Shown: piece by piece, positions 19,158 through 23,955 of the stretch
Layout: each line of letters opens with the position of its first letter
Position numbering within the stretch: position 1 is the stretch's first letter
The notes under the pieces: generated by a model
Databases searched by the model: none
The model's input: only the letters and a program-made list of their open reading frames with translations
Told to the model about the DNA's origin: nothing
Program-made: the position numbers and the translations under genes
From: Candidatus Nomurabacteria bacterium
Lineage (GTDB): Bacteria; Patescibacteriota; Minisyncoccia; Phycocordibacterales; UBA9973
Assembly: GCA_016699365.1 (NCBI GenBank)
Contig: CP064973.1
Span: 575,161 to 639,160 of the forward strand
DNA length: 64,000 bases
Direction: 5' to 3'

Positions 19158-19994
19158 ATGAATATAATTGTCGTGTTTGGCGGAGCTGACTTCGAAGAAG
19201 CAGCTGCAAGGTTGATTGCAAAAAAACATGGACTCGTACTTGCCACCGCGACGGTGGATGGAGTTCCTTGTCATGCAGGCAACGCATACAAAGCAAACGG
19301 CTTTGTAGTAGACGAAGGCAAGGAGAGCAACGAAGACATAGTTATAGTTTTCGAATGCTCAGAAAAGGTTGCAGGAAATCGCGAGATCATAATGGTCTGT
19401 GACCATCACAACCCTGGCGATCCCGGCTTCGGGTTTCCTCCGGAAAATTTCTGGAGAGGTAGTTCTATCGGCCAATTGTGCAAATATCTTAACGAAGAAC
19501 CTACAGAGGAACTTCTTATGGTAGCTGCCTCTGATCACTGTTTTCCTGCTGCATATGCAGGAAAATGTCCGGGGATTAATCCGGAGGAGTTTGCGAAATT
19601 TCGAATCTCGCAGAAAGTTGCATTTTATGCAACAGATGTTCGTAATGCGCATAAATCAACTCCGTCGGAGCTGGAAGAAATTATCCAGATGACAATGCAG
19701 AAAATTTCTAAGGCTCCTATTATCGAACCTGGACTGGTTGATATGCGAGGACAGGGCTTCGTTGAAGAACTGCCTGAGTCGGCAGTGAGATTGGGACTGG
19801 CCTACATCTCGGAGATACAAGACCGTGATAGGAATCAGGTTCCTACAGGTAACATGAAAATTGTTATCGGCGGATGTACTGATCCTGAGATGGTCGTTTC
19901 CTTCATGGAATGGGCAAATGCTCTTCCTAACAAGGTCGGTAACGCATACGGAGATCCTATCCGTGGCTTTGCCGGAATTGTTGTGAAGCCTTAA
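19158..19994 (+). CDS. hypothetical protein of unknown function, compositionally atypical (high GC)
   Basis: 278 aa; GC clearly above its neighbours by eye, about 47% against a high-30s background; motif MVCDHHNPGDPGFGFP; flanked by a perfect promoter and a strong terminator. Confidence 0.6.
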   Translation: MNIIVVFGGADFEEAAARLIAKKHGLVLATATVDGVPCHAGNAYKANGFVVDEGKESNEDIVIVFECSEKVAGNREIIMVCDHHNPGDPGFGFPPENFWRGSSIGQLCKYLNEEPTEELLMVAASDHCFPAAYAGKCPGINPEEFAKFRISQKVAFYATDVRNAHKSTPSELEEIIQMTMQKISKAPIIEPGLVDMRGQGFVEELPESAVRLGLAYISEIQDRDRNQVPTGNMKIVIGGCTDPEMVVSFMEWANALPNKVGNAYGDPIRGFAGIVVKP

Positions 19995-20002
19995 ATTTTT
20001 TC

Positions 20003-20031
20003 AAAACCCTCCGATTGCGGAGGGTTTTTAA
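20003..20031 (+). terminator. rho-independent terminator
   Basis: AAACCCTCCG-ATT-GCGGAGGGTTT followed by TTAAT. Confidence 0.6.
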
Positions 20032-20057
20032 TATGCTTGTGTAGACAAATTATCTCC

Positions 20058-20345
20058 CAAAGAAAAAAGGCTGTTCCGTAGAACAGCCTTCTAAAACTCC
20101 TATTTATAAGTCTCCGGATGGTGCCGGCAGATTTCTGCGAAATCTTCTCCAATTCCGCATACTTGGGACACCCGATACGTATCCCGCAACCTCAAGCAAG
20201 TGAGGACTTGCTTGATTTAGACTATTTCTCCGTTCGCTCGCCACTACTGGGAGATAAAGAGCTTTTTGTAAAGATAACACATAAATCTGGATAGTCAAAC
20301 AACCCTACCGCCTCGTATCCTCGAGGCGGTTTCTCCACCCAAAAT
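20058..20345 (-). ncRNA. 23S rRNA domain-I-like fragment with its own intrinsic terminator (rRNA-derived ncRNA or pseudogene)
   Basis: The minus strand reads ...UCUCCCAGUAGUGGCGAGCGAACGGAGA..., near-identical to the universal 23S segment CCCAGUAGCGGCGAGCGAACGGGGA. Flanking stretches resemble the adjacent 23S helices but other universal cores are diverged or missing. It ends in the hairpin AGGCUGUUC-UACG-GAACAGCCU plus UUUUUU, at 20058-20090 on the minus strand. Confidence 0.5.
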
Positions 20346-20389
20346 ACCATTGTTTTGAGAGGGGATTTGTGGGATGATAAATAAATATA

Positions 20390-23373
20390 ATGGATAAATA
20401 CATACAAAGCATATCTAAAAAATACTTAGATACTCAAACAAGTGAAATGGGATATCGTACGGATTTTGAAAATTTTCTCGAAACTATTTTTTCAAAAGAG
20501 CAAAAATACCATATTCATCATGATGCAAAAGCTGTGGGTGGAAATAAGCCTGATTTCGTTGTACTTAAAAACCAAATACCAGTTTTGTATATTGAAAATA
20601 AAGATATTGGTATTGATTTAGATAAAATAGAGAAGTCTAATCAGATGGATAGATATTTTGGATATGATAACCTTATTTTGACTGACCAAATAGAATTTAG
20701 ATTTTATCGAAACGGAGAAAAATATGATGAATCAATTAAAATCGCAACATACGATAAATCAAATAGAACGATTAATCCTATCCCAGAAAATTTTACACTT
20801 CTAGAAAAAACTATTATAGATTTCACTCTTTCTCACAAAGAACCAATTAAACGAGGGAAGCGTCTTGCTCAAATTATGGGTGGAAAAGCTCAACGCATTC
20901 GTGACAATGTTTGTGACATGCTTACTTCTAATAATGAAAAATATGCAGAACTTTTAAATATAAAAAAAGTAGTTACTGAAAATCTTGTTTCGAATTTAAA
21001 AGATGAAGACTTTGCTGATATGTACGCGCAAACCCTTGTATATGGACTTTTTGCGGCTCGGTATAATGATAAGACAAATGATACTTTTTCTCGTGCTGAA
21101 GCTCGAGATTTGGTTCCAAAAACAAACCCATTCCTACATTCTTTTTTTGATCACATCGCAGGAGCGTCTTTTCCTGATAGATTGCGGTTTATTGTAGACG
21201 AACTTTGCGAAGTTTTTTCTCATGCAGATATTCAAAAAATTCTTCATGATTTTTATGGAAAAGAAAAAGATAATAAAGATCCAATAATTCATTTTTATGA
21301 AGATTTCTTGAAAGAATATGATTCAAAAAAGAAGATGGAAATGGGAGTTTTTTATACTCCTCGTCAAGTTGTGAAGTTTATTGTGCGTTCTGTTGATGAA
21401 ATTTTGAAAAAAGAATTTGGTCTTGCTAAAGGTCTTGCTGACGCAGAGAAAATTAAAATAAATAAAAAAGAAATCTATCAAGCTCAAAAAAGAACAAAGG
21501 CTGAAGAAAAGAAAGATGGTTCAATAATAGAAGTTCAAAAAGAATATCACAAGGTACAGGTTTTGGATATAGCGACAGGAACAGGAACATTTTTAAACGA
21601 AGTTATTGAACATATTCACAAGAGCTTTATAGGTCAAGAAGGGCGTTGGGAGAGTTATGTTAAAGAAAACCTTTTACCTCGCCTTCACGGTTTTGAGCTT
21701 ATGATGGCTTCATACACAATTGCGCATTTAAAGCTTGGGATGACTTTATTTGATTCTGGGGTTACTAATTTAAACCAACGTTTGGGTGTTTATTTGACAA
21801 ATACACTCGATGAGCCAAAAGACTATTCAAATCAAGGTTCACTTTTTGGATTTATGGATGCTATTGCTGAAGAGTCAAAAAGTGCTTCAAGGGTAAAATC
21901 TGAATATCCAATAATGTGTGTAGTAGGAAATCCGCCGTATTCCATTAGTTCTAGCAACAAGGGTGAATATATTACTGACTTAATTAATGTATATAAAACA
22001 AAACTAAAAGAAAAAAATATACAACCAATTTCAGATGATTATATTAAATTTATTAGATTTGCTGAAAACCTAATAGAAAAAAATAACTCCGGAGTTGTTG
22101 CAATGATTACAAATAATTCTTTTATTGACGGGATTATTCATAGGCAAATGAGAAAACATTTACTCGAGACTTTTAATACCATTTACATACTTAATTTAAG
22201 TCCTAGGAATCATAAAGAAGATCAAAATGTTTTTGATATCAAACAAGGTGTTTCAATAAATATTTTTGTTAAAAACTCGAAAAAAGACAAAGTTTTAGGA
22301 GATGTTTTTTATGCAGAGATAGCTGCGAAAAGAGAAGAGAAGTTTCGGGTATTGGATGATAATAATATAAAGTATGAAAAGTTAGACTATTCAGATCCAT
22401 ATTATTTTTTTGTTCCAAAGGATTTCTCAAATATTAAGGAATACAGCAAAGGATTTATTTTATCGGACATTTTTATGCATCAAAATGCTGGATGTGCTAC
22501 TGGTAAAGATGATCTATTGGTAAATTTTAACAAAAAGATTTAACCGATAAATTAAACAATAAAAATATTATATTTGATGAATCTGATATCGTTGAATATA
22601 ATTATAGGATATTTGATAGAAGATACTTTGTGTATGATAATAAACTTATACAAAGGTTACGGGAAAAAATAATGAAGCATTTTAAAAATGATAATATTGG
22701 ATTAATTTCAACAAAAATATTATCAAGTGACTCATACAAACACTCTTTCTTAACTAACCTTGTGGGAGATAGATGTCTTATATCAAATAAGGGTAAAGAG
22801 GCAAATTATTATTTTCCTTTATATCTTTACACAGATCAAAATGAAAAAATACCAAACTTGAATAAAGAAATTTGGAATAAGATAAATGAATTAGTGGGGG
22901 AAACTAAACCAGAAAATATTTTGGATTATATTTATGCTGTCTTACATTCGTCTACATATCGTAACGAGTATAAAGAATTCTTAAAAATTGATTTTCCTAG
23001 AATTCCATATCCAGAAAACAAAGAAGAATTTTGGAAACTTGTTCCACTTGGCACAAAACTGCGTGATTTGCATCTTATGACTGCTCCAGAATGCAATAAA
23101 CTTATTACTACTTACGGTATTAAAGGCAGTGATACTGTTGAAAAAATTATATATAAAAATGAAAAGGTGTATATAAACGAAACTCAATACTTCGGGGGTG
23201 TCCCAGAAGTTGCATGGAATTTCTATATAGGAGGTTATCAACCCGCTCAAAAATGGTTAAAAGACCGAAAAGGACGAACTCTTACTAATTCTGATATTGA
23301 GCATTATCAGAAAATTATTGTAGTTTTGGTGGAGACAGATAAGATTATGAAGAAAATAGATCAGTTATTATAG
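20390..23373 (+). CDS. MmeI-like Type IIL restriction-modification enzyme (PD-ExK nuclease, gamma-class N6-adenine methyltransferase, target-recognition C-terminus), interrupted by an apparent -1 frameshift
   Basis: N-terminal nuclease motif KPDFVV...IENKD; methyltransferase motifs GVFYTPRQVV, LDIATGTGTF (motif I), VVGNPPYS (motif IV); C-terminal GGYQPAQKWLKDRKGR. The ORFs 20390-22543 and 22630-23373 fuse into about 965 aa if the A5 run at 22532-22536 is A6 (...NFNKKDLTDKLNNKNIIFDESD...). Confidence 0.75.
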
Positions 23374-23376
23374 AAT

Positions 23377-23955
23377 ATGTCTATGAATACTAAAGACAGT
23401 AAAATTGTATATGTGTTCATTGACGCATCCAATCTATGGCAGTCACAAAAAGTGAAAGGTAGGATGTTTGATTTTGAGAAATTAAAAATATTCTTAAAAG
23501 AAAAATTTAATGCTAAGGAGCTCCAGATATTTTACTATACCGCTTATCCGAAAGAAGGGACACGAGAACAAAGTCAAGATGGAAAACATAAATTTTACAC
23601 ATATCTTAAAAAGGGACTTGGTTTTATTGTGCGTAAAAAGGAATTAAAAAGAATTGTTCAGCATAGTGATTTGGGTGATTCAATACAGGAAAAAGGAAAT
23701 ATGGATGTTGAAATGACCATTGATGCGATTCATCATTGTAAAAAGTACGACTCCGCGGTTCTTTTTACGGGAGATTCTGATTTTCTCGCTTTAGTTAATT
23801 ACTTGAGAAACGGTGATAAAAAAGTATATATTTTTTCTTCAAAAAACAATGTGTCTCAAGAATTAAGAACAGGGAGTGACGGTTATTTTGATGTTTTAAA
23901 TATTAGTCAGGATATTTGGGGTAGAGATCTTAAATATAAGGAAAATAAGACCTAA
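23377..23955 (+). CDS. NYN-domain (PIN-like) nuclease
   Basis: IVYVFIDASNLW... and LFTGDSDF acidic-residue motifs characteristic of the NYN/LabA family; 192 aa. Confidence 0.7.
   Translation: MSMNTKDSKIVYVFIDASNLWQSQKVKGRMFDFEKLKIFLKEKFNAKELQIFYYTAYPKEGTREQSQDGKHKFYTYLKKGLGFIVRKKELKRIVQHSDLGDSIQEKGNMDVEMTIDAIHHCKKYDSAVLFTGDSDFLALVNYLRNGDKKVYIFSSKNNVSQELRTGSDGYFDVLNISQDIWGRDLKYKENKT

Follow-up and report, generated by a model that had tools for sequence, protein, structure and literature searches.

What is a piece of 23S ribosomal RNA (rRNA) sequence doing in a stretch of DNA that contains no rRNA operon? The question arises from a 64,000-nucleotide (nt) stretch of a Candidatus Nomurabacteria bacterium (GenBank assembly GCA_016699365.1, contig CP064973.1, positions 575,161 to 639,160), which we refer to as the window and number from its first letter. 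A preliminary description had pointed to a minus-strand segment of about 290 nt that resembles part of 23S rRNA and had suggested that it could be an rRNA-derived regulatory RNA, a relic of an rRNA gene or intron, or a chimeric assembly artifact. We find a probable small-RNA gene on the minus strand, with an RNA of ~205 nt extending from 20265 to ~20060, in the intergenic region between a 278-amino-acid (aa) open reading frame (ORF; 19158 to 19994, plus strand) and a gene for a 717-aa N6-adenine DNA methyltransferase (20390 to 22543, plus strand). The element is very probably a functional structured small RNA derived from 23S rRNA. The explanation that we favor as a whole, with moderate confidence, is that it is an independent gene for an rRNA mimic, the product of which would imitate the core of 23S domain I in trans.

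The 25-nt sequence CCCAGTAGTGGCGAGCGAACGGAGA, which first drew attention to the locus, occurs once in the window, at 20251 to 20227 of the minus strand, with zero occurrences expected from shuffled sequences. BLASTN against E. coli rrlH aligned 28 nt with positions 235 to 262 of 23S rRNA (25 of 28 identical), and a weaker collinear match placed the ACCAUCC region at positions 401 to 418. With a short-variant Prevotella 23S gene, the alignment was collinear over 145 nt (65% identity; E, 1e-6). The 23S-like character proposed for the flanks of the 25-mer is therefore backed by an extended alignment, and also by a model of the family described below, which scores true 23S genes. The G+C content of the element is 46.6%, compared with 36.6% for the window.

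We placed the window sequence helix by helix on a consensus structure derived from an alignment of domain I of E. coli with the Rfam large-subunit (LSU) rRNA model. The RNA core is a closed multihelix domain of 173 nt (20265 to 20093; this and the following positions are on the minus strand) that is homologous to helices H13/H14, H15, the base of H16, H21, and H22 of 23S domain I. The helices are collinear with those of 23S rRNA, and all of the junctions are kept. The domain is closed by a helix of its own, P1, in which AAAGCUCUU (20265 to 20257) pairs at 9 of 9 positions with AGGAGUUUU (20101 to 20093). Inside P1 lies the H13/H14 hairpin of the Rfam consensus structure, UCUCC-C-AGUAGUGGCGAGCGAA-C-GGAGA (20254 to 20227), which holds the 25-mer; its stem has CUCC/GGAG, a compensatory change relative to the CCCC/GGGG of E. 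coli. The junction that follows, AAAUAGUC, contains AGUC (20223 to 20220), which pairs with GACU (20112 to 20109). This pairing, here called Hx, corresponds to the aGcC/GgCu pairing that encloses H15 to H22 in 23S rRNA. Within Hx are H15, with a 10-bp stem and a CCUC loop (20215 to 20192), followed by the junction GGUUG; a 21-nt hairpin with a 7-nt loop, GGG-A-UAC ... GUG-U-CCC (20185 to 20165), which is the base of H16 and stands in for the ~100-nt H16-H20 arm of 23S rRNA; AAGUA, which joins H16 to H21; H21, with 9 bp and the loop GGAGAA (20159 to 20136), followed by GAAAUCU; and H22, CCGG-CACCAU-CCGG (20127 to 20114). The 23S-like sequence AAAUA comes 3′ of H22 and Hx and is immediately followed by the 3′ strand of P1. 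As the preliminary description had stated, the cores of H11/H12 (CUGAAACAUCUAAGUA) and of H18-H20 (GGGUGAUAGCCCCGUA) are both missing from this copy. Its term "fragment" says too little, as the element is a closed, miniaturized domain with its own closing helix.

An intrinsic terminator abuts P1 (20092 to 20059), with a 12-bp stem, a UACG loop, and then UUUUUUCUUU; the terminator reported previously is this hairpin and U-run, at 20092 to 20065. Upstream of the core, a consensus scan identified a sigma70-like promoter-like site at 20298 to 20271, consisting of TTGACT (20298 to 20293), a 16-nt spacer with a TG, and TATCTT (20276 to 20271). This consensus match predicts a start at ~20265 to 20263, and together with the terminator it suggests that the element is transcribed. 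The RNA is thus shorter than the ~290 nt first proposed, because the region from 20266 to 20345 comprises the promoter-like site and a separate hairpin. The minimum free energy (MFE) fold of the single window sequence independently yields P1, H15, H16, H21, and the terminator. On both strands the sequence folds with much lower energy than its shuffles (z, about −5), and energy alone does not decide the strand.

Two other paired sequences lie in or next to this RNA. The separate hairpin (20307 to 20330), which is perfect on either strand, G+C rich, and 9 bp long (ACCGCCUCG-AGGAUA-CGAGGCGGU), is located just upstream of the small-RNA promoter-like site and within the 5′ leader of the methyltransferase gene. 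On the minus strand it was marked as resembling a terminator, although that strand has no gene upstream of it, and no equivalent hairpin is seen in the rest of the family. The second is a perfect 10-nt inverted repeat (20050 to 20059, UUAUCUCCCA; 20248 to 20257, UGGGAGAUAA) between the 5′ strand of H13 and the sequence just beyond the terminator. It dominates the MFE fold of a longer stretch, would form only upon read-through, and would disrupt H13. We set it aside in favor of P1 since it is not conserved in the related element L014, described next.

To define the family, we scanned one genome for each of 185,579 species with a strict pattern and found two orphan elements of the same design, L014, in a metagenome-assembled genome (MAG) of Candidatus Paceibacterota, and L022, in a MAG labeled Saccharibacteria. 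A scan of metagenomes returned copies of the L014 and L022 types (L038 is identical to L022) and a third type, L037. A covariance model, R1, built from four sequences and searched against further uvrB loci of the candidate phyla radiation (CPR), then identified a fifth, more divergent member, L041 (MAG JAWVHA010000125.1), with 91.6 bits. The family therefore has five distinct sequences, those of the window, L014, L022, L037, and L041. R1 (cmsearch) gives members 92 to 175 bits (144 bits for the window) and true 23S genes 27 to 64 bits. An nhmmer profile built without the window sequence has a single match in the window, at 20261 to 20113 of the minus strand (E, 5e-20). The window copy has the features by which we propose to recognize the family: an H13/H14 hairpin with AGUAGUGGCGAGCGAA, a truncated H16, an xxGAGAM loop in H21, a CAYCAU loop in H22, a P1 formed between the 5′ end and the bases that immediately follow AAAU(A), and a terminator directly after P1. 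All five members end in a hairpin and a U-run.

Most matches from the genome scan were not members but true 23S genes or coding coincidences. One 23S copy, in the complete genome of Prevotella histicola (CP181052.1; locus L028, 4325 to 4493), seems to be missing H15 together with the 5′ half of the H16-H18 arm, and it matched the short-spacing pattern because of this apparent loss of ~80 nt relative to the consensus. Two scans of viral contigs returned nothing or chance matches in high-G+C coding DNA. A candidate for a sixth, minimal member came from a MAG of Candidatus Moraniibacteriota (locus L007, 1617 to 1973, plus strand), where a promoter, TTGACA-17-TATATT, is followed by an RNA-like region of ~300 nt that folds strongly (z, −4.9). 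Its long terminator stem encloses a perfect hairpin of the 23S H13/H14 type, AUGUC-C-AGUAGCGGCGAGCGAA-A-GACAU. In Rfam, the region matches only Phage_DGR RNA, and weakly (18 bits; E, 0.65); the consensus of that family holds a similar hairpin. The region may be a diversity-generating-retroelement RNA, and we treated it as unrelated.

The gene immediately downstream of the element in L014, L037, and L041 is uvrB, on the same strand; L022 has one gene between the two. The UvrB proteins of the members are 68 to 79% identical. That of L022 is 69 to 75% identical to the UvrBs of Paceibacterota, as similar as those are among themselves, and the Saccharibacteria label of its MAG is doubtful on this sequence comparison. 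Seven UvrB look-ups, covering ten loci, yielded one new member, and the remaining loci lacked the element. A search for orthologous loci through the 278-aa protein found no relatives among the genome contigs searched, and the contigs of its homologues (L049 to L054) lack the element, so the RNA has no linkage to the family of the 278-aa gene. The divergent members L014 (6815 to 6845) and L037 (~2825 to 2860) share a box, CAAAAUAGCGUAUU, located between the terminator of the small RNA and the start codon of uvrB; this box may be a uvrB promoter or operator.

Whether these elements reach the threshold of the Rfam LSU model depends on the member. At gathering score, Rfam 15 finds no family in the whole window, including 6S, SRP, RNase P, tmRNA, and known small RNAs; neither other rRNA nor 5S rRNA was detected, as had been reported for the vicinity of the element, and ARAGORN found no tRNA in the window. 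In a permissive scan of 19900 to 20500 (E ≤ 10), there were no LSU matches, and the weak matches fall on terminators only. L022/L038 (152 to 162 bits) and L041 (125 bits) do reach the gathering score of the bacterial LSU family, RF02541, which the window copy does not. Their matches are untruncated orphan hits rather than full 23S genes, and they span model positions 46 to 470 (L038) and 36 to 484 (L041) with internal deletions of 61 to 133 positions. At the location of H16, the alignments have deletions of 88 (L038) and 84 (L041) model positions. The window copy likewise lacks the H16-H20 arm, with the 21-nt hairpin in its place, has no remaining 23S or rRNA operon around it, and runs directly into its terminator. 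The preliminary description had proposed an Rfam search as its check. Run as written, with no match in the window, that check discards the finding; we judged it too strict, since the homology escapes Rfam because it is broken up by large deletions.

Evidence that the fold is maintained comes from comparison of the members. We aligned all five with guidance from the model (alignment A4); a few rows are still misregistered, and helices were also parsed by hand. In A4, 89.7% of cells are in standard pairs, compared with 24 to 50% when the 3′ partners are slid by 1 to 3 columns. Nineteen of the 29 pairs are altered on both sides, and none of 500 shuffles reached any of the observed measures. With five sequences that are related, the outcome of the shuffling should not be read as a probability; the argument is carried by the slid controls and by how many independent types of compensatory pair occur. 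In the manual parse, all pairs of H13, Hx, H15, both parts of H16, H21, and H22 are canonical in every member, with differing sequences. H21 occurs in five versions (UGCGGAAUU/GAUUUCGCA, UGCCUCU/GGAGGUA, ACAAGGU/GCCUUGU, ACUCAGAA/UUCUGAGU, and UGUAUG/CAUGCA), and eight of its nine pairs differ on both sides across members. H22 is CCGG/CCGG in four members, with the compensatory CCAG/CUGG in L041; Hx is AUUG/CAAU in L014, AGCC/GGCU in L037, and AGUC/GACU in the window. The H13 stem covaries among members, and H15 varies in length and sequence. P1 is present and fully paired in all five with unrelated sequences (9 bp in the window and 7 to 11 bp in the other four). Recurrent G-U pairs are compatible only with the minus strand, that is, the rRNA sense.

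The members differ in how much of domain I they retain. From P1 to P1, the core measures 173 nt in the window, 180 nt in L014, 242 nt in L037, 267 nt in L041, and 310 nt in L022. The larger members keep H11/H12 (GAACUGAAAYAUCUAAGUA), L022 keeps H5 to H7 as well, and the window copy is the most reduced. L041 has in addition gained AGCGAAAGCGAGUCUGAAUAGGGCG inside its H16 hairpin (2290 to 2335). The match of this sequence in true 23S rRNA is ~350 to 770 nt downstream of H13, in domain II, so it is a noncollinear graft and not a retained segment. Presence of the element also varies. It is absent from the tgt-uvrB gap of L040 and L055, whose UvrBs are 92 to 93% identical to that of L014, and from another four uvrB loci of CPR bacteria. 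In the position that the rRNA-like RNA occupies in L014, L040 (2375 to 2470) and L055 (same region) have a different element of ~95 nt between tgt and uvrB, delimited by GCUAG...CUAGC. This element, which may be a further small RNA or a leader, has a ACAAUAUCC-AAAA-GGAUAUUGU hairpin inside it and a U-rich tail.

We weighed five alternatives to an independent mimic RNA. Given where most members lie, the element could act in cis on the gene that follows it, usually uvrB, as a leader or attenuator in which the rRNA-like fold would sense a protein and control read-through of the terminator. In the window, however, the next gene, that for the 278-aa protein, is convergent, and there is no uvrB within the 64 kb. 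Moreover, the stem of the terminator adjoins P1 but shares no bases with it, so that no alternative pairing is evident; promoter-like sequences separate the terminator from uvrB in L014 and L041, and close relatives carry uvrB without the element. We regard a cis leader as unlikely.

The RNA could instead be one part of a 23S rRNA in pieces, encoded apart from the rest and assembled into the 50S subunit in trans. Its rRNA sense, its junctions and loops resembling those of rRNA, among them the H22 loop, which kisses H88 in 23S rRNA, its own promoter-like site and terminator, and the general precedent of split rRNA genes in organelles are all in keeping with such a role. However, without H18-H20 (the uL4/uL24 region) and H23-H24, the RNA could not stand in for the native segment. 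A true CPR 23S rRNA, L030, has its own H13 to H22, and the family is variable in content (173 to 310 nt) and absent from close relatives. In addition, a survey of CPR 23S rRNAs lists four peripheral regions as lost, H9, H63, and H78 among them, and in the part of the survey available to us none of the gaps is in the domain-I core (PMC9297842). Such a role in the ribosome itself is quite unlikely.

Equally slight is the prospect that the RNA is part of a mobile or accessory element or serves one, for instance as an integration target or as cargo of a variable island. This would account for the patchy distribution, with presence and absence differing between close relatives, and for the position by a restriction-modification/NYN cluster. 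The window RNA is at the edge of this low-G+C block and forms a higher-G+C island with the 278-aa ORF, the nearest homologue of which has different neighbors. On the other hand, none of the five loci has an integrase, a transposase, a reverse transcriptase, or terminal repeats, and the 10-nt inverted repeat of the window is not conserved in L014.

A decaying, functionless relic of a former 23S copy would also show clear 23S descent, large internal deletions, patchiness, and differences among members in the portions retained. Neutral decay does not account for compensatory substitutions that keep every helix across members whose UvrBs are as divergent as those compared above, for a new closing helix and a terminator in every member, for arms deleted whole and cleanly and capped with loops, or for the gain of a graft in L041. 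We therefore consider the relic proposed in the preliminary description very unlikely. Its third suggestion, that an rRNA read was misjoined into the contig, has nothing in its favor except the a priori risk for MAGs and can be dismissed, because the same design, with its arm deletions, closing helix, promoter-like site, and terminator, recurs in independent MAGs and metagenome contigs from different projects and no real 23S segment has this sequence.

We return to an independent mimic RNA. Its history would begin with duplication of part of a 23S rRNA gene and continue with miniaturization to a stand-alone gene, giving a small, patchy family in CPR bacteria of the Paceibacteria type. The RNA keeps the junctions and helices of the domain-I core, is closed by its own P1, and ends at an intrinsic terminator. 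Conservation falls on the rRNA-like junctions and loops, and for this reason a ribosome-like fold that acts by molecular mimicry in trans seems likely. The "rRNA-derived" part of the original suggestion is supported, and "regulatory" is a proposal. In the proposed mechanism, the RNA would bind a ribosomal protein or assembly factor that recognizes the domain-I face of 23S rRNA and would titrate, store, or chaperone that protein; that it is a protein-binding mimic of this kind is plausible, at somewhat less than even confidence. Candidate ligands would be proteins around H22-H88/H29-H31, such as uL15, bL35, or bL33. The H22-H88 kissing loop adjoins H29/H31, and the region is stabilized by uL15, bL33, and bL35 (bioRxiv 10.1101/2022.03.10.483802). 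The graft in L041 comes from the H27-29 region of domain II, which adjoins the same H29/H31 neighborhood, and the graft and the surroundings of H22 may together hint at the ligand. A more specific version, which we put forward tentatively, is a free-standing decoy RNA, arising from a duplicated piece of 23S, that would dock a ribosomal protein or an assembly factor, or would itself attach to pre-50S particles through the H22-H88 kissing loop, and so tune ribosome assembly or ribosomal-protein homeostasis in trans.

Several observations weigh against a mimic acting in trans. The element is missing from the corresponding locus of close relatives and is thus patchily distributed, and dispensable or mobile; the strict pattern matched in only 2 of the species scanned. 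The covariation statistics come from five distinct members and so rest on few sequences. Mimicry gives no account of the adjacency to uvrB in three of the five members, with L022 one gene further away. Known rRNA mimics are cis leaders of ribosomal-protein operons, and the window RNA is not beside ribosomal-protein genes. Both transcription and protein binding are inferred, and the proposal for the ligand draws on the graft of a single member and on a structural neighborhood taken from the literature. The literature that we searched, with incomplete coverage, contained no direct table of proteins contacting H13/14/21/22 and no description of an rRNA-like small RNA in CPR bacteria; an earlier description is possible.

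Comparison with known systems helps to place the element. It shares with bacterial 23S domain I (RF02541) the strand sense, the order of helices, and the junctions AGUAGYGGCGAGCGAA, AAUAGYC, GGUUG, RAGUA, GAAUCU, ACCAU, and AAAUA. It differs in length (173 to 310 nt, compared with ~2,900 nt), in the collapse of H16-H20 and the partial or complete loss of H5-H12, in having nothing 3′ of H22, in its own closing helix and terminator, and in its location outside rRNA operons. Mimicry of rRNA is known from short cis-acting leaders of ribosomal-protein operons. Like those for L1, L10, L20, S8, and S15, the element is an extraribosomal RNA that would resemble a ribosomal-protein binding site of rRNA, and the principle proposed here is likewise mimicry or titration. 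However, those leaders are short elements in the 5′ untranslated regions (UTRs) of ribosomal-protein genes and resemble rRNA mostly by convergence, whereas the small RNA is free-standing, is homologous to rRNA by descent, and comprises a whole multihelix subdomain. The window RNA clearly resembles 23S domain I, its partner protein is a candidate only, and it is not in the 5′ UTR of a ribosomal-protein gene: its neighbors are the convergent 278-aa hypothetical and the methyltransferase, with uvrB downstream in other members. With 6S RNA (a mimic of the open promoter), the CsrB/RsmZ sponges, and the tRNA-like domain of tmRNA, it has in common that it is a stand-alone structured RNA ending in a terminator and that it possibly imitates the natural ligand of a protein. 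It has no sequence or structural relation to them and no Rfam match, and the molecule imitated here is rRNA. Fragmented rRNAs, such as the 23S rRNAs of Salmonella and Coxiella that are processed at intervening sequences (IVSs) and the organellar rRNAs in pieces, are also separate RNAs matching part of 23S rRNA. IVS fragments are, however, cut from one rRNA-operon transcript and jointly make up a complete 23S rRNA, whereas the small RNA is a reduced extra copy without essential arms. By analogy, we propose that it may work like the rRNA-mimicking leaders and the trans-acting mimics (6S and CsrB), yet it belongs to none of these groups.

The genes on either side of the window RNA have features of their own. 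The 278-aa ORF, whose product is identical to IPJ63_03415, belongs to a CPR-restricted family of hypothetical proteins with ~100 relatives, including some in Peribacteria and Andersenbacteria, and has no match in Pfam or NCBIfam. Its G+C content is 46%, and a bidirectional terminator lies at its end (20000 to 20031). On the other side, the region from 20390 to 23955 (plus strand; ~30% G+C) is a restriction-modification-like block that encodes, in order, the 717-aa methyltransferase, of the N6_Mtase/Eco57I/MmeI type, a 247-aa ORF with only the C-terminal specificity domain of a Type ISP enzyme, and a nuclease with an NYN domain. From its sequence, the block looks like a split or degraded Type ISP/IIG system.

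Rfam, with 4,227 families, includes no stand-alone gene in which compensatory evolution has preserved a whole rRNA subdomain. Annotation based on Rfam scores the larger members as "partial 23S rRNA," which could distort rRNA gene counts, checks of MAG quality, and surveys of rRNA introns in CPR genomes. If the decoy reading is true, the family would be a new class of bacterial regulatory RNA that is derived from rRNA by descent. If a ribosomal protein or assembly factor is bound, the 173-nt RNA would be a compact natural model of an autonomously folding 23S domain-I core and would offer a handle on ribosome biogenesis in CPR bacteria, which are uncultured and have reduced genomes.
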